From positions 185,712 to 249,711 of the forward strand of contig CAZHDM010000003.1 of the NCBI GenBank assembly GCA_964531655.1: a DNA stretch of 64,000 nucleotides, written 5' to 3'. Shown here piece after piece: positions 31,382-42,212 of this stretch (the first letter of the stretch is position 1; each line of letters begins with the position of its first letter). A program made the translations under genes and the position numbers. Origin of the DNA: an uncultured Flavipsychrobacter sp. (GTDB lineage: Bacteria > Bacteroidota > Bacteroidia > Chitinophagales > Chitinophagaceae). The notes beneath the pieces were generated by a model, which saw only the letters and a program-made list of their open reading frames with translations, was not told the origin of the DNA and did not search any database.

Positions 31382-32848
31382 TTATTGTTTCTTTTCAGGT
31401 TTTTTAGCGTATATCTCTACCCAGGTATATAAAAATTCTGCTTTATCTACCAGTGTATAGGCTGTATCCAGATGTGCTCTTTTGTAGTCTTCAATGTGTG
31501 GGTCTCCATGCGCACTGGCCACAGCAAAAGTATCTACATCATATTTAGACGAACTCTTTGACAATATAGAATCTACAATTGCTTCTTTATCCCCCGAAAG
31601 TAGCTCACCTTCGTAACCAAGTTTCTTCAAATAATAGTTCTGATGCCACCCGGTCATTTCATTAAGGATTGGCATACTCTTAGATTTATTTAATATATAC
31701 TCCGTCATCTCGCGGAACTGTTCTTTTTTTGGCTTTTCGTAAAACTCTTTTACATACACAATATCAAAAAACGCAAGGAAAAGGAATACCCCGAGTATAG
31801 TATATCTGATAAATTCATTTTTTATCAGATAGAAACCATAAGCTATACCTAAAAATAAGCCCGGTAGTACTACTACTGTATATCTGGAAACCATCATAGG
31901 CACTACAACTATCGATCTTACATACATGACGATGTAAGTGATTACAACACTGATGAAAATGAAGATGAAGCTTAGTAATAAAGGGCTCTTTTTGATCTCG
32001 GTGAACTTACCTTTCTGTGCAAAAACATTGACACAATATATAATCAAAGTGATGTTTATAAACGGCATCAAATAGTTTGAAGAGCCAATATATTCCAGCA
32101 AATAGTAGTAGTAAAAGTCTTGAGATGGCTTTTGTATCCAAAAGGATTCAATATTGGACATCTCTTTTAAATAAGGGAACCAAGGCACATAAACTATCAG
32201 TATTATTAACTCTACTATGAAAAACGATTTGAAGAACTTTAGCTTATTATCTTTCTCAGCTGCCCATAGAATGATGAATAATATTAGCTGACAGAATATA
32301 ATCAATAGGCTGAAATAGTGACTATATAGCAATAATACTGTGGAGAGTATATACCATATAGCATCAGCCCGTCTTAAGTACTTAGCAAATCTTAGAAAAT
32401 ATGTAAAAGAGAGAATAGTAAAGAACCATAAAAATATATACCCTCTTGCTTCTTGAGCATAGTAGATATTGAAGTAATTAAGACAAGTAATTGCAGCTGC
32501 TATTAAACCAAGACGTTCGTTTAACACTTCTTTCCCGAGCTTATACATTGCCCAAACACACCCTACACCTGCTAATGCCGGTGCTATTCTCGCTACATAT
32601 TCGTTATGTCCGAACAGGCTGAACATGATACGTTCTACAATAAAGAATATTGGAGGATGCTGGTCACAGCACATTAAACTATTAAATAACTCGCTCCAAG
32701 GAAGACTCGGGTCAGCTTCATTCATCGTATGTAGCTCATCCAGCCACAGGCTTTCGAACTGTAAATAATTAAATCTGAGAACAACAGCAACTATAAGTAT
32801 TACAGTTAGGATCAAATAGTTAACATACTTGTTTTGCACCTGTAACAT
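31382..32848 (-). CDS. GT-C-fold membrane glycosyltransferase (GT39/GT83 ArnT-like)
   Basis: 488 aa, polytopic. The first loop carries LWLDELHT (Asp-Glu motif). AT-rich, and 5 nt downstream of a GtrB-like GT2. Confidence 0.65.
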   Translation of the reverse strand: MLQVQNKYVNYLILTVILIVAVVLRFNYLQFESLWLDELHTMNEADPSLPWSELFNSLMCCDQHPPIFFIVERIMFSLFGHNEYVARIAPALAGVGCVWAMYKLGKEVLNERLGLIAAAITCLNYFNIYYAQEARGYIFLWFFTILSFTYFLRFAKYLRRADAIWYILSTVLLLYSHYFSLLIIFCQLILFIILWAAEKDNKLKFFKSFFIVELIILIVYVPWFPYLKEMSNIESFWIQKPSQDFYYYYLLEYIGSSNYLMPFINITLIIYCVNVFAQKGKFTEIKKSPLLLSFIFIFISVVITYIVMYVRSIVVVPMMVSRYTVVVLPGLFLGIAYGFYLIKNEFIRYTILGVFLFLAFFDIVYVKEFYEKPKKEQFREMTEYILNKSKSMPILNEMTGWHQNYYLKKLGYEGELLSGDKEAIVDSILSKSSSKYDVDTFAVASAHGDPHIEDYKRAHLDTAYTLVDKAEFLYTWVEIYAKKPEKKQ

Positions 32849-32853
32849 TCCTT

Positions 32854-33786
32854 CTATTTTATGATATTATATATTTCAACCTTCATTTTGTTATGACTTT
32901 GATGCATAAGATTCAGCAAGAGCAGACCTGTTACAAAAAAGCCTAAACATATAGTTGCGAGTATGACCAAACTAATAGTAAGTGTACTGAACCAACCCAG
33001 AATTGCTGTACCTGCTACAAACTTTTGGTATAACACATTAACAAACATGATCAATATCACTACAGACAATAAGACAAACATCTTTAAGAATATCATCAAC
33101 AAATCTTCTGCAAACTCTATGAAGGAACGGAATGCATGAAAAAGTAGTCCCTGTAACCCCATCTTGGACTTTCCATCTATACGCTTGCTCCTGTCATATG
33201 TTATACTGGTCTTTTTGGCTTTTTGCTTTAGTAAGTAAGCAGGGAAGTGTATAAAAGAAGTATTAGCTACACGCTCTACGATTACTTTGCTGATCATACT
33301 GTAGTTACCATAGTCCATTTTCTTATTAGTAACCAGCTTAAACAGCATTTTATACAGATAGTAAAAGAACCTGAATTTGAGACTTTCGTTACGCTTGCCT
33401 CTTTTTACCTCTACAATATCATAGTCCTTCTTTTGTACTATGTGAGGTATTGCTTCCGGATCATCCTCTCCATCTGAATCCATGACGATAACATGATCAA
33501 AACCTTGAGCTTGTGCGTATAACAACCCTTGAAAGATAACCGCCTGATGACCTGAATTATATAACAGGCCTAACACTTTAAGCGTAACATTCGATGACCT
33601 GAACGTATAATTTTTTATAATGTCTAGAGAATTATCTGTAGAGCAGTCATCTACAATAACTACTACAAATTGTTCACTTATGCTTCCTAATACTTCATCA
33701 AGCTTTTGTAAAAAATGACCAATAGATTCACTTTCGTTGAAGCAAGGAGCAATAATACCGATTGTACTGGGTGTCAGGTCTGCCAT
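32854..33786 (-). CDS. GT2 polyprenyl-phosphate glycosyltransferase (GtrB/ArnC/DPM1-like)
   Basis: IIAPCFNESESI, VVIVDDCSTDNS and DSDGEDDP, plus two C-terminal TM helices. Confidence 0.8.
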   Translation of the reverse strand: MADLTPSTIGIIAPCFNESESIGHFLQKLDEVLGSISEQFVVVIVDDCSTDNSLDIIKNYTFRSSNVTLKVLGLLYNSGHQAVIFQGLLYAQAQGFDHVIVMDSDGEDDPEAIPHIVQKKDYDIVEVKRGKRNESLKFRFFYYLYKMLFKLVTNKKMDYGNYSMISKVIVERVANTSFIHFPAYLLKQKAKKTSITYDRSKRIDGKSKMGLQGLLFHAFRSFIEFAEDLLMIFLKMFVLLSVVILIMFVNVLYQKFVAGTAILGWFSTLTISLVILATICLGFFVTGLLLLNLMHQSHNKMKVEIYNIIK

Positions 33787-33854
33787 AGTAGATTAGCCAC
33801 ACTAAATTACTCTTTCTTATATAATATTCAACTTAGTCTATTATCAGACCGTAG

Positions 33855-34418
33855 CTATCCTTTTTTGTTTTGTGTAGCTATAGCTTCTACAAACCATAGA
33901 TATTCATCAACAAATTTGCTAAGGTTCTTCTTTAATATATCATCTTGCGGAGTGCCGTCTTCATCCAAAGAGTCAGCCAAGTGTGGAACTAATACCTTAT
34001 ATGGCATTGGGAAGGCATTGATAGCAAGGATAAGCTCTTGCATTTTATGAGAAGCATTAACACCACCAAGTCTACCTCCTGACGCAGCGCAGATACCTAT
34101 TGGCTTTTTGCTCCACTCTTTCGTAAAGTAGTCTACCGCATTTTTAAATGCTCCGCTATAGCTACCATTATATTCGGGTGAAACAAATACAATACCATCA
34201 GCATTCTTTAGCGCATTACTAATAGTGACCAAGTTCTCAGGAGGGTTATCCAAATACATCAAACGCTTCTCCATGACAGGTAGGTTGTAATCTTTGATGT
34301 CAATAAAAGTAACATCAACCTTACCCGAATCTTTCAAAGCCTTTTGTACTGCTCTTGCAGCTCTTATACTCAGACGACCTTCTCTTATTGCACCGTACAG
34401 AATAGTAATTTTATACAT
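33855..34418 (-). CDS. NADPH-dependent FMN reductase family protein
   Basis: Flavodoxin-like fold with VFVSPEYNGSYSGAFKNAVDY. Confidence 0.8.
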   Translation of the reverse strand: MYKITILYGAIREGRLSIRAARAVQKALKDSGKVDVTFIDIKDYNLPVMEKRLMYLDNPPENLVTISNALKNADGIVFVSPEYNGSYSGAFKNAVDYFTKEWSKKPIGICAASGGRLGGVNASHKMQELILAINAFPMPYKVLVPHLADSLDEDGTPQDDILKKNLSKFVDEYLWFVEAIATQNKKG

Positions 34419-34732: not shown

Positions 34733-35902
34733 TTACATGAACTTCTTACCTTCTGCTGCATACTTACGTAGCAGAGTACTTGCTCTGTAACGGTCTTCGT
34801 GGTACTCGTTGTATAAGCCATCTAGGATATTGAGTACCTTATCTGCTCCCCACTTATCGCACCAGGCCAGTAAGCCTTTAGGATAGTTTACCCCTTTGGT
34901 CATGGCAAGGTCCAGATCTTCTGCTGATGCTATGTTGAGGTGTAGTGCATCTACCGCCTCGTTGATGAGCATAGCTACTATACGCTCTACAATCTTGTTG
35001 CCGATTGTTGTGTTTTTATCTGCTTCGGGTTGTGCAACACCTTCGGCATAGTTATAGAACCCTCTGCCTGTTTTGCGACCCAGCCAGCCAGCTTCTACCA
35101 AACGCTTTTGAGAGAATGACGGCTTGTAGCGCGGATCGTAGAAGAAGGACTGAAACACCGTCTCAGTAACTACATAGTTGACATCATGGCCGATGTAGTC
35201 TGTAAGGGTGAATGGGCCCATGCGGAAACCACCCAATTCTTTCATAGCCCAGTCGATAGTGGCCATGTCGGCAATACCTTCTTCCATGATGCGGATGGCT
35301 TCTCCGTAGAACGGACGTGCCACACGGTTAACAATGAAGCCCGGCGTATCCTTAGCTATTACAGGTACTTTCTTCCAGCTCTTCATCAGTTCTTTACAAT
35401 CTGCCACGGCAGCCTCATCGCTTTGTACGGCAGGCACTACCTCTACCAATGCCATTAGCGGTGCGGGGTTGAAGAAGTGCAGACCCAATACGCGCTCAGG
35501 CTTATCACATGCTGCAGCTATTGAGGTAACGGATAAAGAAGATGTGTTGGTAGCGAGGATGCAATCATCACTTACCAGATTCTCCACTTCGTTAAATACT
35601 TTTTTCTTGATGTCCAGATTTTCTATGATAGCTTCTATCACCAGACCGCAGGGTTGCAATACATCCAACTGCTCGGCATAGGTAACACGTGCCAGTATAT
35701 CATCGGCACTGCTGATCTTACCTTTTTCTACCAGCCTGTTGAGTATCTTCTTCAGCTGCTGGTGCGATTTGTTCAGCGCCTCTGCATTGCTATCGTATAT
35801 CACCACGTTGTGACCCGCCTGTGCTGCCACTTGTGCTATACCACTACCCATGGCGCCTGCGCCTATTACTCCTACGGTTGTATCTGTTGAAAATCTTGCC
35901 AT
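34733..35902 (-). CDS. 3-hydroxyacyl-CoA / 3-hydroxybutyryl-CoA dehydrogenase (PaaH-like)
   Basis: Rossmann motif VGVIGAGAMGSGIAQVAA and an HFFNPAP region, with a duplicated C-terminal domain. Confidence 0.85.
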   Translation of the reverse strand: MARFSTDTTVGVIGAGAMGSGIAQVAAQAGHNVVIYDSNAEALNKSHQQLKKILNRLVEKGKISSADDILARVTYAEQLDVLQPCGLVIEAIIENLDIKKKVFNEVENLVSDDCILATNTSSLSVTSIAAACDKPERVLGLHFFNPAPLMALVEVVPAVQSDEAAVADCKELMKSWKKVPVIAKDTPGFIVNRVARPFYGEAIRIMEEGIADMATIDWAMKELGGFRMGPFTLTDYIGHDVNYVVTETVFQSFFYDPRYKPSFSQKRLVEAGWLGRKTGRGFYNYAEGVAQPEADKNTTIGNKIVERIVAMLINEAVDALHLNIASAEDLDLAMTKGVNYPKGLLAWCDKWGADKVLNILDGLYNEYHEDRYRASTLLRKYAAEGKKFM

Positions 35903-35980
35903 AATGCTGCGAAAATAACTTTTTTACTGCGCTATACATATTACCATGTATCAACTATCTGTTATCGACAGCATTCAGCG

Positions 35981-36577
35981 CTATTCTACCAGTTCATCTT
36001 TGCGAGCAAAAGCAGGATGCAACTGTGGCAAAGTGGTGTGGAACAATACATCGTGCAGGCGGGTGTGCAGAATAGATGCAGGCAATGCTTTTTCTGTAGT
36101 GGCTACTTCCTGCTCTTGGGGTGCGGGTTGCGGTGTGACTTGTGTGGTGTGTACTACATTGATATTCCTGTCACTAGTATAATGCCCTGCCAGCTTGCTA
36201 TCCAGATCTATGGCTTTGAGCATCTGGTTGACCGTGGGCTTTACCAGCTGGGTACAGGTGTTGCAATCTTTACCCTTGTAGTTCTGCTCTACATAGATAT
36301 CGCCCTCTGCAATACGGGCTAATAATTCGCGCTTGCGCTGTACCGTGAGTAGTTGTGTTTTCAGCTCTTGCTGCAACTGCTGCTCTACTTCATTGCGTAT
36401 GCGGTTGGTGACCTCTGCTATGGCTGCTGCCACTTCAGGGTGTTGCAGTAGCCTGTTGGCGGCAGACTCTACCGTACGGTAAGAGGAGCTATCGCAATCG
36501 TAAGCTTTTTTGTAGGCGATCATCTTATCGCCAATGCGCAGGTACTCGGTTACAAATTGTTGTTGACGTGTATTCAT
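35981..36577 (-). CDS. phage terminase small subunit (Terminase_2/TerS)-like DNA-binding protein, orphan
   Basis: The N-terminus QQQFVTEYLRIGDKMIAYKKAYDCDSSSYRTVESAANRLLQHPEVAAAIAEV follows the TerS HTH pattern (F-x-x-Y-L ... A-Y-x-x-A-Y ... A-x-x-L-L-x-x-P-x-V). It is followed by a coiled region RELLARIAEGD and ...KAIDLDSKLAGHY. No large terminase or portal gene is nearby. Confidence 0.6.
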   Translation of the reverse strand: MNTRQQQFVTEYLRIGDKMIAYKKAYDCDSSSYRTVESAANRLLQHPEVAAAIAEVTNRIRNEVEQQLQQELKTQLLTVQRKRELLARIAEGDIYVEQNYKGKDCNTCTQLVKPTVNQMLKAIDLDSKLAGHYTSDRNINVVHTTQVTPQPAPQEQEVATTEKALPASILHTRLHDVLFHTTLPQLHPAFARKDELVE

Positions 36578-36594
36578 GGTACAGGAAATTTTGT

Positions 36595-36628
36595 GTCTGC
36601 AGCATGGTGGGAATGGTGCTGTACAGAC
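36595..36628 (-). promoter_or_regulatory. bulged stem-loop in the leader of the TerS-like gene
   Basis: GTCTG+CAGCA pairs with TGCTG+(TA bulge)+CAGAC across a 12-nt loop. It lies between the -7 box and the ATG. Confidence 0.3.
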
Positions 36629-36644
36629 CTGTTATTTATAATAA

Positions 36645-36652
36645 CAAATATA
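36645..36652 (-). promoter_or_regulatory. candidate -7 box (TATATTTG) giving the TerS-like gene its own promoter
   Basis: The minus strand reads TATATTTG, an exact TAnnTTTG match, in the 92-nt gap after the 583-aa ORF. Confidence 0.4.
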
Positions 36653-36669
36653 CGCTATTTAATTGAAAT

Positions 36670-38421
36670 CTATTTTTTACCGAACTTTCTAAATGCTTGA
36701 ATGGTTTGGTATACCATGTACGATATAAATATTCTACCGACATAATCTATTATTCGTGCTAATGGAGTAACCTTATCTTCTTCTATAAAGGATGGCTGTT
36801 TACGTATGGGGTTTAGAAACTCAAAGGAGTGAGAAAAAAGCAACCAAAATTGCTCCATATCATCTCCAAACCTATATCCAATAGCCCAACAATAAGCACT
36901 AAAGAACAACCATACCATAGCCATAGTCATTCCAGTAGCTAAAAGCCAGTTGGTACCATAATAATTAGACCATCTATTGAGAAACAAATTGAAACGCTCT
37001 ACATTTCTATTTTTAATTTCTTTATTCTCTCTCAATAACTGTCTATACACTTCCATTTCCTGAGCTCTCATCTCCAATGCCCTCACTGTATCACCCTGAT
37101 TCTCGTATACTTTTTTAAATTGCCCTAATGCAAGTCTCCTTTGCTCATTACTATCTTTAACGTTCTTATTAATATCTTTAGCATGAGGTAACTTCGTATC
37201 AGCTAAAAAAACTTCAAGCATCTTTGAATTTTTGAATATAAAACTTTCAAAATCCGACAAATCACATCCGATAAATTGTGTATCACCTAAATCAGAGTTT
37301 ATAATACATATATCTGACTTTATTTTAAGATAAACGAGTGTTTTTATAATCAAAAATTTATATACAGCACTGTAGGGAAACAAATAATTTTCTGTTGCTG
37401 TACTATTTAATATTTTAAAAATATACTTATGCCTTAATGCTTTTATATCATTAAACACTATCCTCCCTTTGTTATTTAATGTATTGAATTCTAATGATTT
37501 AATATCTGTTTCAGATATTTGTAAGTTCGTATCGTTTGCTATTACTGATTGGTTTAATACTAATTTGTTTACTATAGACCTTATACTATTCTTATGAAAA
37601 GATTTAATTACTACATTATTAAAATTATCCATCAGGAAATGAAGAACGGTAATATCACAGGAGCTTATATTGAGGTTTTTAGACTTTTCTTTGAACGAAT
37701 AAAAATATACAGACAAGAAATTACAACTCTTTAGTTGAACATCTTCAATAATTGCTTTATCAACAATAAGGGTTTTTATCTTTGCGTCAAGAATGCGCAG
37801 TATGTCAACTTTTACTCCATTTATATCTATAGTTTCAACGAAAGAGTTATAAATACTATTTTCTTTGAATCTACCTCCTCTTATTTCATATCTTATTATT
37901 TCTGAATCGCTAATGCGAATATCATCTATTCTTGATTTATTCATGATGATGTACTCAAAATCAGACACTCTTAGATTAATTATATAGAGGTTAGAATTAT
38001 CAATTCTAATCTTCTTTAAATCACTTAGATCAGTTCTAAGAGCTCCTAGTGAAGAATATTCAATTGACATATATCTGATAGTAGAATTAGAAAGGATTAT
38101 ATTGTCTATTGTAGTACTTTCTATCTGGAAACTATCAATCACAGTATTCTCTATATCTATAAATATTCCGCTGGTATTGTTTATAAGAAAACTGTCTATA
38201 GTAATATTTTTCAATTCTAACTTGGGTAAGACTCTCTCATTCTCGATATTGACATCATCAATTATAAAGTTGTCAAATACTACATATTGCTCACCCCAAT
38301 AATTTCTCTGATAATACTCCTCATAACACTCTACGCCTTTATAATCACCTCTCCAAATCTTAATAAACTCTTTTGCTGATATCTTTTTGCGCTGGGGTTG
38401 CTCTTGCGGTGCTTGGTTCAT
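36670..38421 (-). CDS. 583-aa hypothetical protein with degenerate pentapeptide-like beta-helix repeats and a C-terminal transmembrane hairpin
   Basis: About 20-residue periodicity, e.g. IDIENTVIDSFQIESTTIDN / IILSNSTIRYMSIEYSSLGA / LRTDLSDLKKIRIDNSNLYI / INLRVSDFEYIIMNKSRIDD / IRISDSEIIRYEIRGGRFKE. C-terminal hydrophobic segments NWLLATGMTMAMVWLFFSAYCWAIGY and IIDYVGRIFISYMVYQTIQAF. The DNA is very AT-rich. Confidence 0.6.
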   Translation of the reverse strand: MNQAPQEQPQRKKISAKEFIKIWRGDYKGVECYEEYYQRNYWGEQYVVFDNFIIDDVNIENERVLPKLELKNITIDSFLINNTSGIFIDIENTVIDSFQIESTTIDNIILSNSTIRYMSIEYSSLGALRTDLSDLKKIRIDNSNLYIINLRVSDFEYIIMNKSRIDDIRISDSEIIRYEIRGGRFKENSIYNSFVETIDINGVKVDILRILDAKIKTLIVDKAIIEDVQLKSCNFLSVYFYSFKEKSKNLNISSCDITVLHFLMDNFNNVVIKSFHKNSIRSIVNKLVLNQSVIANDTNLQISETDIKSLEFNTLNNKGRIVFNDIKALRHKYIFKILNSTATENYLFPYSAVYKFLIIKTLVYLKIKSDICIINSDLGDTQFIGCDLSDFESFIFKNSKMLEVFLADTKLPHAKDINKNVKDSNEQRRLALGQFKKVYENQGDTVRALEMRAQEMEVYRQLLRENKEIKNRNVERFNLFLNRWSNYYGTNWLLATGMTMAMVWLFFSAYCWAIGYRFGDDMEQFWLLFSHSFEFLNPIRKQPSFIEEDKVTPLARIIDYVGRIFISYMVYQTIQAFRKFGKK

Positions 38422-38464
38422 GCGTGTTTGTGATATTAGTGCTGGTTATATATTACAAAATACC

Positions 38465-38533
38465 TCTTTCTTTTTACTTCAAAAGAAAGAAGCAAAGAAA
38501 ACCGCCAAGCATTTATGACGTTCAAATGCTTGG
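38465..38533 (-). promoter_or_regulatory. two adjacent stem-loops in the upstream region of the 583-aa ORF
   Basis: 38465-38490 has a 10-bp stem, TCTTTCTTTT/AAAAGAAAGA. 38505-38533 has a perfect 10-bp stem, CCAAGCATTT/AAATGCTTGG, with a 9-nt loop. Confidence 0.3.
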
Positions 38534-38610
38534 AGTATATCTATGTGGCAGCAGTGCTACTGTAGTTATGAGCTTTATAAAGTTTATTTGTAGTTGAAAA
38601 TACAATCAAA

Positions 38611-38638
38611 CAAAAACGGCTCGCCAATGGCGAGCCGT
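38611..38638 (-). terminator. rho-independent terminator after the FAH-family gene
   Basis: The minus strand reads ACGGCTCGCC-ATT-GGCGAGCCGT followed by TTTTTG. Confidence 0.8.
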
Positions 38639-38665
38639 AATGTGCTATATCTCGTTCAGAGTATA

Positions 38666-39676
38666 TTATTGATTCTTCTTCAGTGCCAGCAGGCTGAAGT
38701 CTGTATCTTCTTTTACAATTGTGTTCTTCAATCTGCCTAGTCCTTCTATCTCCATCTCTACCACATCGCCGGGTTGTAACCACTGCGGCTGATAGTTAGG
38801 ATCATTGAACAAGCCTGTACCGTTCAGCTCCAGTAAGCAACCTGTACCTACAGTACCGCTACCTATCACATCGCCCGGCAGTACATCTGCACCATAAGCA
38901 CAACGCTCGATGATCTCAGCAAATGTCCAGTCCATATCGCCCATGCTGCCTTCGCTCAGTAGCTTACCATTCACCCAGCATTTCATTTTCAGGTCGTAGT
39001 TGTTACCGGTGTGTCCGTCTTTAGCAGGTACGCGCCATTTTTCCAGCTCGTCAGGCGTTACCATTATCGGGCCTATCACTGTACTGAAGTCTTTACCTTT
39101 TGCAGGGCCAAGGTTCAGCTTCATCTCTTCCATCTGCATCAGGCGGGCACTCATATCATTCATGATCATGTAGCCTGCTATGTAGTTATCAGCTTCTTCA
39201 GCTTTTATGTTGCGGCCTTTTTTACCTACTACTACTGCTGCTTCCAATTCAAAATCCAGCTTATTGAAATGGTCGGGCATACAAACGATGTCACCGGGGC
39301 CTTGTATCGCATTATGATTAGTGAAGTACCATATCGGGAACTGGTCGAACTCAGGTATCATATCCACCTTACGGTTGCGGCGTGCTGCTGCTACGTGCTG
39401 GCGGAAGGCATAACCATCGCGGCAAGACGTAGGGTGTGGCACAGGTGCCAATATGTTAGCTCCGTCAAAAGCCAATGGTTCTGCACTCGTATTCTGTCCG
39501 CTCTTGATATCATCTTCCGTTCTGCGTGCTACATCTTCCATGCTCTCCCAGTTGTCCAACATATCTTTCATATTGTCGGGCAGCCTGTTGTTGGCAGCAT
39601 TGGTGTCATATAATGCATCGTTGATATAAAATGCCAGTTGCTCTTTTCCTTCTTTTGAATACGTTACCAGTTTCAT
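38666..39676 (-). CDS. fumarylacetoacetate hydrolase (FAH) family protein
   Basis: DFELEAAVVVGKKG and GDVIGSGTVGTG regions typical of the FAH fold. 336 aa. Confidence 0.85.
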   Translation of the reverse strand: MKLVTYSKEGKEQLAFYINDALYDTNAANNRLPDNMKDMLDNWESMEDVARRTEDDIKSGQNTSAEPLAFDGANILAPVPHPTSCRDGYAFRQHVAAARRNRKVDMIPEFDQFPIWYFTNHNAIQGPGDIVCMPDHFNKLDFELEAAVVVGKKGRNIKAEEADNYIAGYMIMNDMSARLMQMEEMKLNLGPAKGKDFSTVIGPIMVTPDELEKWRVPAKDGHTGNNYDLKMKCWVNGKLLSEGSMGDMDWTFAEIIERCAYGADVLPGDVIGSGTVGTGCLLELNGTGLFNDPNYQPQWLQPGDVVEMEIEGLGRLKNTIVKEDTDFSLLALKKNQ

Positions 39677-40477: not shown

Positions 40478-40485
40478 TATTTTTG
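40478..40485 (+). promoter_or_regulatory. candidate -7 box (TATTTTTG) only 6 nt before the acyltransferase ATG (near-leaderless mRNA)
   Basis: Exact TAnnTTTG match. It overlaps the upstream TTG that the ORF track used as the start. Confidence 0.4.
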
Positions 40486-40491
40486 CAGCAG

Positions 40492-41340
40492 ATGTATTAT
40501 CTGCTGCTTTTTATTTTATACCCTTTATCGCTACTGCCGTTTGGTGTGCTATATCTACTGTCGGACGTGGGGTATGTATTGCTGTATCATGTGTTCAGCT
40601 ACAGGAAGCAGCTGGTATACAATAACCTGAAGCACGCCTTCCCCAATAAGACGGATGCAGAGCTAAAAACTATCAGAAAAAAGTTTTACCGCAGCTTTTG
40701 CGATCAGTGGGTAGAGACCATCAAGCTGTTATCTATATCGGAGGAGTCACTCAATAAGCGCATCACAGGCAACTGGTCTGTATTTCATGAATTGCATCAA
40801 GAAGGAAAAAACACGTACGCTCTATTGGGGCATAGCTTCAACTGGGAATGGGCCAATGTAGTGTGCCAGTATAATTGCGAACAGGTATTTGCAGGTGTAT
40901 ACATGCCGCAAAAAAGTGCGGGATTCGATAAACTGCTGCAGCGCATACGTACCTCCGGTGGTGGCTGGCAGATATCTATGAAGGCTAAGAGAGGTTTTCA
41001 GCAATTGAATGATGTGCAGTATATAGTAGGGCTCATGGCCGACCAGAACCCGCCCATAGTAAAAGCTGCTACGTGGCACAGGTTCATGCATCGTGAAGCA
41101 CCTTTCTTTAACGGGCCTGAGGTGTTGGCTAAAAGAGCAGGAGCAGCAGTAATATTTGCCGGTATAAAAAAAGTGAAGCGCGGATACTATGAGATAACCC
41201 TACACAAAATAACTGACGATGCTACTACTTTACCTAAAGGTGAATTGATGCAACAGTACGTTTCTTTTATGGAAGGACAACTGAATGCTCAACCGGAGAA
41301 CTGGCTATGGACCCACCGCAGATGGAAACATCAGCGTTAA
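40492..41340 (+). CDS. lipid A biosynthesis (Kdo)2-lipid IVA acyltransferase family (LpxL/HtrB-like)
   Basis: Start trimmed to the ATG (MYYLLLFILYPL). N-terminal TM segment and an HSFNWE (HX4E) acyltransferase motif. Confidence 0.75.
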   Translation: MYYLLLFILYPLSLLPFGVLYLLSDVGYVLLYHVFSYRKQLVYNNLKHAFPNKTDAELKTIRKKFYRSFCDQWVETIKLLSISEESLNKRITGNWSVFHELHQEGKNTYALLGHSFNWEWANVVCQYNCEQVFAGVYMPQKSAGFDKLLQRIRTSGGGWQISMKAKRGFQQLNDVQYIVGLMADQNPPIVKAATWHRFMHREAPFFNGPEVLAKRAGAAVIFAGIKKVKRGYYEITLHKITDDATTLPKGELMQQYVSFMEGQLNAQPENWLWTHRRWKHQR

Positions 41341-42212
41341 GGCACTATTACTTTTTGTTTTGCAGTATCCAGCCTGAATTTTATTTCATTACCACAGTTG
41401 TGAGCATCGCCATCTGTTTGCATCAGGTTGAGGTCAGGATGGCTGAGTGTTATCTCTTTGGCACGTGTATGAGTTACGTAGGGACTATTAGTAATAGTAC
41501 CATTCATAGCACGCAACACTAAAGCACCGCCTAAAAACTTCGGGAACTTTCTGATGATGACTACATCCAGCAAGCCATCTGTCCAGCTGGCTTGTGGTGC
41601 TATCTGAAAGTTGTAACCGAACTGCCTGCCATTAGCAACACTGATGATAAATGCTTTCTCGTTTAGCTTCTTCCCATCTATTGTGATGTTCCAGTTCCAC
41701 TCTTTGTAGCTCCACATATAGCGGGTAACCAACCAACTGTACATGGCAAAACCACGGCGTACACTTTTTGCAAATTTCTTAGATATCAATGCGTCAAAGG
41801 CAACACCTGCGTTACTGATAAAAGGTCGGTCGTTAGCATAGGCAATATCCATCATGATGCTATTGCCTTTATTAATAACATCAATAGCTGCCTGCTCCTT
41901 TAATGGTATTTGCATACTGCGCGCCATACCATTACCACTACCTTTAGGAATGATGGCTAATGCTGTGTTGGTATCTAATAGTCCGGTAACGATATCATTC
42001 ACAGAACCGTCGCCACCGACGGCTACTACTGCATAAGCACCTTTATCTGCAGCAACTTTGGCTAGCTCGGTGCCGTGCTTGGCATATTGGGTATGTTGTA
42101 TCTCGTAGGTGAATTGTTCTTGGTCGAGACGGGCGTCAATAGCTGTTTGTATAGCTTTTTCTCTCTCAACGCCCGATTTAGGGTTTATAATAAAAACGAG
42201 ATGTTTTTTCAT
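41337..42212 (-). CDS. diacylglycerol-kinase-family lipid kinase (YegS/BmrU-like)
   Basis: VVAVGGDGSVNDIV nucleotide-binding motif. 291 aa. Confidence 0.8.
   Translation of the reverse strand: MKKHLVFIINPKSGVEREKAIQTAIDARLDQEQFTYEIQHTQYAKHGTELAKVAADKGAYAVVAVGGDGSVNDIVTGLLDTNTALAIIPKGSGNGMARSMQIPLKEQAAIDVINKGNSIMMDIAYANDRPFISNAGVAFDALISKKFAKSVRRGFAMYSWLVTRYMWSYKEWNWNITIDGKKLNEKAFIISVANGRQFGYNFQIAPQASWTDGLLDVVIIRKFPKFLGGALVLRAMNGTITNSPYVTHTRAKEITLSHPDLNLMQTDGDAHNCGNEIKFRLDTAKQKVIVP

Follow-up and report, generated by a model that had tools for sequence, protein, structure and literature searches.

Why should a gene of very low GC content and a gene for a protein resembling the small terminases (TerS) of phages lie side by side between housekeeping genes of a bacterial chromosome? 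This question is raised by a locus on the Flavipsychrobacter contig CAZHDM010000003.1, of which a stretch of 64,000 nt was analysed (the window, to which all coordinates refer). In a preliminary description the two genes had been taken for one horizontally acquired, phage-related module; all sequence features listed in that description were recovered at the coordinates given. Our work supports a different view: The region is a strain-variable gene slot that is framed by the terminator of an FAH-family hydrolase gene and a TerS-like gene promoter, the TerS-like gene itself being vertically inherited, and in this strain the slot harbours the gene for a 583-amino acid (aa) protein. We lean towards the idea that slot and resident TerS-like gene are accompanied by a 583-aa protein that serves as a solitary defence effector similar to HalA of the Hailong system. 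The locus is composed as follows:

34733..35902, minus strand: 3-hydroxyacyl-CoA dehydrogenase gene, core flank (Pfam 3HCDH_N, 1.7e-63, plus 3HCDH)
35981..36577, minus strand: resident TerS-like gene, 198 aa (Terminase_2, phrog_51, AlphaFold, Foldseek)
36670..38421, minus strand: AT-rich gene (open reading frame, ORF) for the 583-aa solenoid and membrane-domain protein, the slot cargo in this strain
36669..38607, no strand: strain-variable slot, replaced in comparison to contig L001 (blastn breakpoints 38608 and 36668, both junctions aligned)
38616..38638, minus strand: intrinsic FAH terminator, at the left slot border (stem of 10 bp with 8 G-C pairs, T-run)
38666..39676, minus strand: FAH-family hydrolase gene, core flank (Pfam FAA_hydrolase, 1.2e-57)

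The existence of the slot is evident from conspecific contigs of one sample series, the flanks of which are 95-97 % identical to the window at the nucleotide level. The gene order is constant in these strains, FAH - X - TerS-like - (Y) - dehydrogenase. The FAH protein is 100 % identical (on 11 contigs), and the dehydrogenase and the TerS-like protein are about 99 % and 93-96 % identical, respectively. Among the contigs with the identical FAH protein, the interval from the FAH terminator to the TerS promoter is filled in at least six different ways. The individual contigs carry the following genes at the positions X and Y:

Window: X, the 583-aa gene; Y, none
L004: X, a 741-aa homologue; Y, an extra 171-aa gene
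L006: X, a 204-aa gene and a 608-aa homologue; Y, none
L076: X, a 670-aa homologue; Y, an extra 171-aa gene
L077: X, a 187-aa gene and a 576-aa homologue; Y, none
L001: X, two unrelated genes on the opposite strand, 249 and 57 aa; Y, none
L225: X, a 199-aa gene on the opposite strand, after which the contig ends; Y, not covered by the contig

The contig L001 is particularly informative, as it retains the TerS-like gene in the absence of any 583-like gene. The breakpoints of the alignment with this contig define the exchanged unit as 36669-38607, and the TerS-like gene and its promoter thus belong to the conserved frame. The slot begins just past the T-run of the FAH terminator, which is kept in all conspecific strains and right behind which the alignment starts to diverge, and it ends about 15 nt before the TerS promoter motif is reached. 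In all six conspecific contexts, the TerS-like gene is located at the very same position between the slot and the dehydrogenase gene, and it has native composition. Homologous recombination by way of the conserved flanks is the most likely route by which the slot gene was exchanged; the junctions are clean, and neither a recombinase nor repeats are present. Not only the outer flanks are conserved: the 5' region of the 583-aa gene (38422..38577, minus strand, with hairpins at 38533-38505 and 38494-38461) shares 90-95 % nucleotide identity with L004 and L006 despite solenoid regions that cannot be aligned, and the first approximately 100 nt of the ORF are common to L004 with about 95 % identity. 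This 5' region does not contain an exact TAnnTTTG box. Variable DNA can also sit downstream of the TerS-like gene, as indicated by the extra AT-rich 171-aa gene (GC 0.33, no Pfam family) in the interval between the TerS-like and dehydrogenase genes of L004 (8947-9462) and L076 (7735-8250).

The base composition draws the same line between the two genes. As noted in the preliminary description, the 583-aa ORF is far more AT-rich than its surroundings: its GC content is 0.30 and its GC content at third codon positions (GC3) is 0.27, as compared to 0.47-0.49 and 0.50 for the flanking genes, and the kilobase 37001-38000 has the lowest GC content of the whole window (0.28 vs the mean of 0.40). The TerS-like gene has a GC content of 0.49 and a GC3 of 0.52, the same as its neighbours, and the deviant composition is therefore limited to the 583-aa gene. 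There is no tRNA gene in the 64-kb window, and a search for att-like or terminal repeats at the locus returned only short AT-rich pairs at chance level. An 18-nt imperfect inverted repeat (83 % complementary) flanks the 583-aa ORF at 36682-36699 and 38506-38523. One arm falls into the codons of the conserved protein end QAFRKF, the other is part of a hairpin in the 5' leader, and the repeat is probably a chance product of AT-rich DNA. A scan of 35800-38800 against Rfam gave nothing beyond noise.

Is the resident gene really related to phage packaging? The TerS-like gene is a genuine small-terminase homologue. The protein matches the Pfam family Terminase_2 (PF03592) over residues 1-119 with 39.2 bits, well above the cut-off of 26.1, as well as phrog_51 (1.5e-14). 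The Terminase_2 profile recognises a helix-turn-helix DNA-binding domain at the N-terminus, and in the AlphaFold model the residues 1-135 comprise this domain as well as a long helix and an oligomerisation core with a beta-hairpin (helix 47-91, strands 96-100 and 108-112, helix 116-130). The predicted local distance difference test score (pLDDT) is about 80-95 for the core, and it falls below 50 for the disordered tail (residues 137-198). The best Foldseek matches of the model are the SPP1-like small terminases 3zqq (E 1.3e-5), 3zqp, and 3zqm with probabilities of 0.99-1.0, and the matches include small-terminase oligomerisation domains. The early assignment of this gene is thus borne out.

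The protein shares the N-terminal helix-turn-helix, the long helix and the beta-hairpin core with the SPP1-type small terminase (G1P; Terminase_2, 3zqq), but its genetic setting is different: No large-terminase or portal family was found among the called genes within about 8 kb in the conspecific loci, the sampled neighbours in other genomes are housekeeping genes, the positions are conserved across genera, and there are about three to at least 15 copies per genome with a promoter motif of their own. Close viral relatives were not detected: a search of 50,697 phage records gave a single match at 27 % coverage, and the closest relatives in the phage and IMG/VR collections are merely 28-36 % identical (28-30 % in IMG/VR). 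The setting also differs from that of a phage satellite (PICI, PICMI, or P4-like) or a remnant thereof, as there is no tRNA gene, no flanking repeat, and neither an integrase nor another satellite gene family among the called neighbours, and as the TerS-like gene is syntenic and of native composition. In the conspecific loci, the called genes within about 8 kb are housekeeping genes, and integrase, transposase, replication, and capsid families are likewise absent from them. The lack of an integrase, an att-like repeat and a tRNA gene had already been pointed out in the preliminary description; together with the missing replication, capsid, portal and large-terminase families it leaves the decayed satellite that had been considered there without support.

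The TerS-like gene is equipped with its own control region, which lies outside of the swapped segment:

36635..36653, minus strand: promoter motif GTATATTTGTTATTATAAA, specific for the TerS-like family (a single match in the 64-kb window)
36595..36645, minus strand: leader of the TerS-like gene, with the palindrome GTTATTATAAATAAC (36645-36631) and a hairpin (36628-36595)

The motif includes the exact -7 box TATATTTG (TAnnTTTG; 36645-36652, minus strand) that had been recognised earlier. The leader RNA is predicted to fold with -12.7 kcal/mol (z = -2.1), and its sequence is unchanged across four conspecific sequences. The 19-nt motif GTATWTTTGYWRTWRTAAA, which encompasses the -7 box, has 39 matches in 804 kb of related loci, 38 of them directly upstream of TerS-like genes, and all TerS-like paralogues have kept the motif, even those with only about 33 % identity. 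An extended form, TTTGTATWTTTGYWRTWRTAAA, occurs in 114 viral contigs of IMG/VR (e. g. in L106 and about 75 other loci), with no TerS-like ORF downstream of any of these 114 matches; 76 of the 92 ORFs extracted downstream of the viral motif belong to one family of 162-aa proteins from a single phage lineage that is unrelated to TerS. Downstream of the TerS-like gene, a gap of 78 nt in which no terminator-like site was found separates it from the co-directional dehydrogenase gene, and the two genes are probably cotranscribed.

With these data, the idea that the TerS-like and 583-aa genes form one acquired phage-derived module can be evaluated, be it a defence pair, a pair that interferes with packaging, or a decayed satellite. 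The two minus-strand ORFs between the dehydrogenase and FAH genes are indeed adjacent and co-directional with a distance of 92 nt, a 583-family allele is found immediately upstream of the TerS-like gene in five recovered conspecific contexts, and in L004 a tract of lower identity (89 % at the nucleotide level) covers not only the 3' part of the 583-like gene but the TerS-like gene as well. Moreover, there is a precedent: Rip1 is a ring-interacting pore protein encoded between the terS and terL genes of a prophage, and small-terminase rings trigger the formation of the pore (PMC13434031). Both cases have in common that a membrane-active protein is encoded beside a small-terminase gene. However, Rip1 is a small amphipathic-helix protein of a prophage packaging module, whereas there is no prophage here, the TerS-like gene is one of the host, and no evolutionary linkage exists between the two genes. 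This last point rests on the distribution of the genes: Of 51 other TerS-like loci, none has a 583-like gene, and of about 25 further 583-family loci, the second locus in the same genus (see below) included, none has a TerS-like gene. The pair occurs only at this orthologous locus, and since the TerS-like gene in addition has native composition and is excluded by the breakpoints of the exchange, the two genes do not constitute a module; the two-gene reading fails by the refuting criteria that the preliminary description had itself set, even though its TerS assignment stands. The persistence of the TerS-like gene in L001, its family-specific promoter, the missing integrase, att repeats, large-terminase and portal families and the absence of close relatives from the phage collections all point in the same direction, and we consider a common module very improbable. 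What remains of the proposed horizontal acquisition concerns the 583-aa gene, which is accessory and was probably exchanged; the TerS-like gene is a resident. Similarly, a role in defence is plausible for the 583-aa gene, but the TerS-like gene is not its partner.

What, then, is the cargo of the slot? The AlphaFold model of the 583-aa protein (pLDDT 82.6, predicted template-modelling score 0.74) supports the combination of a beta-helix and membrane helices that had been noted before, and reveals four parts:

38287..38421, minus strand: conserved N-terminal domain, codons 1-45 (about 75 % identity among alleles)
37192..38286, minus strand: pentapeptide-type quadrilateral beta-solenoid, codons 46-410 (AlphaFold strand pattern; hypervariable between strains)
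36964..37152, minus strand: TPR-like helical hairpin and linker helix, codons 424-486 (helices 424-442, 445-465 and 472-486)
36682..36948, minus strand: membrane domain, codons 492-580 (transmembrane (TM) helix 492-513, short helix 522-536, helix 553-580; AlphaFold)

Hydrophobic and polar residues alternate in the solenoid with periodicities of 5, 10, 20, and 30. Pentapeptide_4 scores 24.2 bits on the protein, below the Pfam cut-off of 38, and the profile of the 583 family matches the pentapeptide proteins 6fls (1.9e-5) and 2w7z (9e-5) in the PDB. Pentapeptide repeat proteins such as Qnr, MfpA, and AlbG have the quadrilateral beta-helix and the periodicity of 5 and 20 residues in common with the solenoid. 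In contrast to these proteins, the solenoid studied here is fused to a membrane domain, about twice as long and not acidic (net charge about zero); and while the family profile finds 6fls and 2w7z, the Pfam score stays under the gathering cut-off. The TPR-like hairpin carries a conserved QFKKxYExxGD...A in the alignments of the family and has weak profile matches to designed TPR proteins. The membrane domain has a hydropathy peak at 493-511, a conserved loop FEFLNPxxKxDF in which N537 is nearly invariant and P538 is invariant, and the terminus RKFGKK. None of the Pfam families covers this C-terminal domain, searches of its profiles against the PDB returned only TPR-like noise, and a fold search of the BFVD with the complete model resulted only in generic beta-helix matches of the tail-fibre type. 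From the absence of a signal peptide and the RKFGKK terminus, we infer that the solenoid is cytoplasmic.

The variation among strains is concentrated in the solenoid. In the five alleles at the locus, the N-terminal 45 residues are about 75 % identical, whereas the solenoid (residues 46-365) is only 22-28 % identical and varies in length; the C-terminal domain is 41-83 % identical and falls into two deep classes. There are no DNA tandem repeats in the solenoid region, and the variation is therefore not produced by such repeats. The possibility that the solenoid mimics DNA was considered and rejected, as its net charge (a crude proxy) is near neutral, i. e. -2 over 320 residues, with values of -20 to +8 in other alleles.

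The protein belongs to a large family. An exhaustive profile search identified 5,577 representative clusters (defined at 50 % identity) at E<=1e-3 and 837 at E<=1e-30; a word-indexed search had found just 17 relatives. Of ten members looked up, almost none had a name. In most of about 25 unrelated metagenomic and viral loci, the gene is about 10 GC points below its neighbours, and no recurrent neighbour gene was found across these loci. The genes nearby include those for a Type IIG restriction-modification enzyme (E=0) and a TIR-TM protein (3e-44), both of which were individually mapped, and further neighbours match a Type I specificity subunit and the PADLOC candidates PDC-S01, S05, S09, and S13. 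Along with the strong divergence of the solenoids among alleles, these features can be read as marks of genetic conflict, and they favour a role in defence.

Additional members of the family were encountered in two settings. A second recurrent locus in the same genus (L007, L079, L080) is located beside the rplM-rpsI operon; its alleles are equally divergent (528-633 aa), and it has no TerS-like gene. A 642-aa member with 35 % identity over the C-terminal domain is encoded on a putatively viral contig (L075, IMGVR_UViG_3300022751_000238), and the same 642-aa member is present on a near-identical metagenome contig of 222 kb (L101).

Among the structures in the PDB, the best fold match of the 583-aa model is HalA (9nyi_A; probability 0.99, E 3e-3). 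What is said here of HalA follows the passages on it in PMC13434031 and PMC13586616, which are secondary to Tan et al. 2025. According to these passages, HalA is a tetrameric DNA-gated depolarising channel that is toxic in the absence of HalB (PMC13434031), and a system of P4 hotspots whose first protein consists of pentapeptide repeats and an IRK-type channel domain is equated with Hailong (PMC13586616). As far as these accounts go, both proteins have pentapeptide repeats that are followed by a membrane domain, and both are encoded in variable accessory loci. There are, however, clear differences: HalB, the nucleotidyltransferase that makes the inhibitory oligo-dA, is not encoded adjacent to the gene, neither here nor in the about 25 loci of the family; HalA has 333 aa as compared to 583 aa here, with a solenoid that is much longer and hypervariable in our protein; and the 583-aa protein possesses an extra N-terminal domain and the TPR-like hairpin. 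The arrangement of TM helix 492-513, short helix 522-536, loop and helix 553-580 is compatible with an ion-channel domain, with no match to Pfam or in sequence. By analogy, the 583-aa gene may encode a new version of the HalA-type architecture, in which solenoid and membrane domain do without a partner.

If this analogy holds, the 583-aa protein might be a stand-alone abortive-infection effector that senses phages, an idea to which we give a chance a little short of even. The solenoid would then act as the sensor or gate for a phage component or a phage-induced change, and the module of TM1, short helix, FLNP loop and TM2 would oligomerise into a pore, as in HalA. Upon triggering, this pore would depolarise the membrane, and all this would be achieved without a partner of the HalB type.

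Several observations weigh against a defence effector of this kind. (i) The similarity to HalA is limited: the TM-scores of the match are low (0.19/0.29), profile searches against the PDB gave no sequence-level match to HalA, and with KcsA as a stand-in for a channel with two TM helices, hhalign returned a probability of 0.3 %. In addition, a strict hydropathy threshold is passed by one segment only, and the near-neutral charge of the solenoid speaks against DNA mimicry as its mode of action. (ii) HalA alone is toxic without HalB, and a solitary version would thus need a different gate. (iii) PADLOC, NCBIfam, and PHROGs have no model that matches the protein, the neighbourhood in the window is made up of housekeeping genes rather than a defence island, and the defence-like counts among the 112 proteins encoded within 5 kb of family members come without a background control. 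Moreover, the slots beside TerS-like genes also hold genes for proteins secreted by the type IX secretion system (T9SS), a rhomboid protease, a glycosyltransferase, and two-component systems.

Some of these points would also fit a protein that has nothing to do with defence, i. e. a niche-specific membrane protein such as a regulated channel or a scaffold, with a solenoid that tolerates drift and with an AT-richness that is partly the result of repeats rich in Ile, Asn, Lys, and Ser. Indeed, I, N, L, K, and S prevail in the composition of the protein, the defence libraries contain no match, related strains have family members at the second, stable locus beside rplM-rpsI, and many cargos of slots elsewhere are not defence genes. 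However, the difference in GC3 (0.27 vs 0.50) implies that the bias is not caused by the amino acid content alone. Also against this reading, five alleles with solenoids of 22-28 % identity coexist in strains with flanks of 95-97 % nucleotide identity, and the gene is missing altogether from one strain. The cytoplasmic position inferred for the variable domain would rule out the variation of a surface antigen, and defence genes are present among the neighbours of the family. We therefore regard a function outside of defence as unlikely, and a solitary HalA-like effector as the preferred reading for the cargo.

The second component of the locus, the resident TerS-like gene, leads to the question of whether it is related to the slot at all. 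In a scan with one genome per species, the TerS-like family was found at 51 loci, nearly all of them in Chitinophagaceae-like genomes, including Flavipsychrobacter, Taibaiella, LGM1, and IBVUCB1. The genomes typically carry three paralogues at conserved positions. The extreme is a metagenome-assembled genome (MAG) of Flavipsychrobacter (CAYXHM01) with at least 15 copies (L022, L026, L030-L039, L042-L044). Sequence conservation among these copies (80-92 % nucleotide identity) is restricted to about -160..+440, corresponding to promoter, structured leader and core domain. Their C-terminal tails are dissimilar and feature low-complexity peptides that recur, among them QQNAT and PLPGRGLGEA, with the appearance of read-through into repeats of high GC content. 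A recent amplification, or else gene conversion, is suggested for this MAG. The neighbours sampled around the TerS-like copies, both in the multi-copy MAG and elsewhere, include two-component systems, T9SS proteins, and metabolic genes and no recombinase, transposase, or integrase; the conserved neighbours sampled in other genomes are genes for a carbamoyltransferase, NDH-2, a radical SAM protein, and similar ones.

The surroundings of the TerS-like genes have a striking polarity. Across 50 loci, the first gene upstream shows a GC deficit of 5.6 points (p=1.5e-11), whereas the gene downstream is co-directional in 90 % of the 50 loci and has a normal to high GC content. With a single representative for each orthologous position, 27 independent positions remain, and for these the GC content of the 1.5 kb upstream is 0.387 as compared to 0.455 downstream, with the upstream value being the lower one at 25 of the 27 positions (Wilcoxon 3.7e-7). 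Within orthologous groups, the genes downstream are common to 70-100 % of the genomes, and the content of the slot differs. One example is the slot that has the YjbR gene on one side and, on the other, the TerS-like gene that precedes the NDH-2 gene: in seven genomes, it exists in six states. In other genomes, the cargos beside TerS-like genes include Old (767 bits), SoFic, PDC-S39, and a TIR-TPR protein. The TerS-like gene studied here is one member of a domesticated, hitherto undescribed chromosomal family of small terminases that is located beside variable AT-rich slots across the Chitinophagaceae.

These slots resemble the flexible islets and the defence hotspots with conserved borders known from P2 and P4 (PMC13586616): the conserved flanks are sharp and the AT-rich cargo is interchangeable, there are many alternative contents per population, and Old, SoFic, and TIR proteins are among the cargos. 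In contrast to the hotspots, the slots described here are chromosomal and outside of a phage or satellite, their cargo is not exclusively made up of defence genes, and what recurs as a marker is a small-terminase homologue, in place of an integrase or a structural gene of a phage.

It is conceivable that a causal tie exists between the TerS-like gene and the slot, and that the 583-aa gene is merely the current cargo of an islet anchored by TerS. As a ring protein that binds DNA in a sequence-specific manner, the TerS-like protein might serve as an anchor at which adjacent DNA is packaged by phages or recombined, as an insulator under its own control that keeps the core gene downstream expressed in spite of foreign AT-rich DNA, or as a decoy that disturbs phage packaging. 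The polarity of GC content and gene orientation, the differing slots next to conserved downstream genes, the 19-nt motif that is common to all paralogues and nearly exclusive to TerS-like genes, the copies of the multi-copy MAG that are alike only from promoter to core domain, and the retention of the oligomerisation core in the fold are all in agreement with such a link. Yet, this evidence is purely correlative, and neither recombinases nor repeats or packaging genes were found nearby among the sampled neighbours. Headful packaging from a pac site within terS normally proceeds downstream, and this direction points away from the variable side. Furthermore, nothing is inserted in the slots of L055 and L053, the motif of the viral contigs is not linked to TerS genes, and islets could simply build up where insertion is harmless. 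A causal tie is for these reasons rather doubtful in our view. The more general idea that the domesticated family may organise flexible genome islets, with a fixed position, the 19-nt motif, a housekeeping gene downstream and AT-rich cargo upstream, is an improbable one at present.

The comparison of the conspecific strains brought to light two more variable sites in the vicinity. At 31421-33861 of the window, two glycosyltransferase genes (GT2, 310 aa, and PMT_2, 488 aa; GC 0.34-0.36) are present that are absent from L006, in which mfd directly follows the flavin mononucleotide reductase gene; these genes make up a second AT-rich islet that varies between strains, at a distance of about 2 kb from the locus. 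The other site is at about 41330-41340, where the DAGK gene (41337-42212) meets the LpxL-like gene (40483-41340): four strains carry a 191-aa gene for a pentapeptide-repeat protein similar to Qnr and MfpA there, an 83-aa gene takes its place in one strain, and the window has neither.

Both components of the locus may be relevant beyond this strain. The polarity between TerS-like genes and AT-rich DNA, of which our literature searches found no description and which is apparently unreported, points to a function of a phage packaging protein for the host. If it were true that the TerS-like ring promotes the exchange of adjacent DNA, for instance as a pac-like anchor in transfer by phages, or insulates it, this would be a new islet-organising element that originates from the packaging machinery of phages. 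For the 583-aa protein, the idea of a solitary HalA-like family is specific, testable and apparently unreported as well. If it is correct, the defence repertoire would gain a large family of at least 837 clusters (E<=1e-30) for which Pfam, NCBIfam, and PADLOC have no model, and membrane effectors gated by a pentapeptide solenoid would be able to act without a nucleotidyltransferase partner. The natural series of alleles in coexisting strains would then provide a ready-made set of specificity variants.

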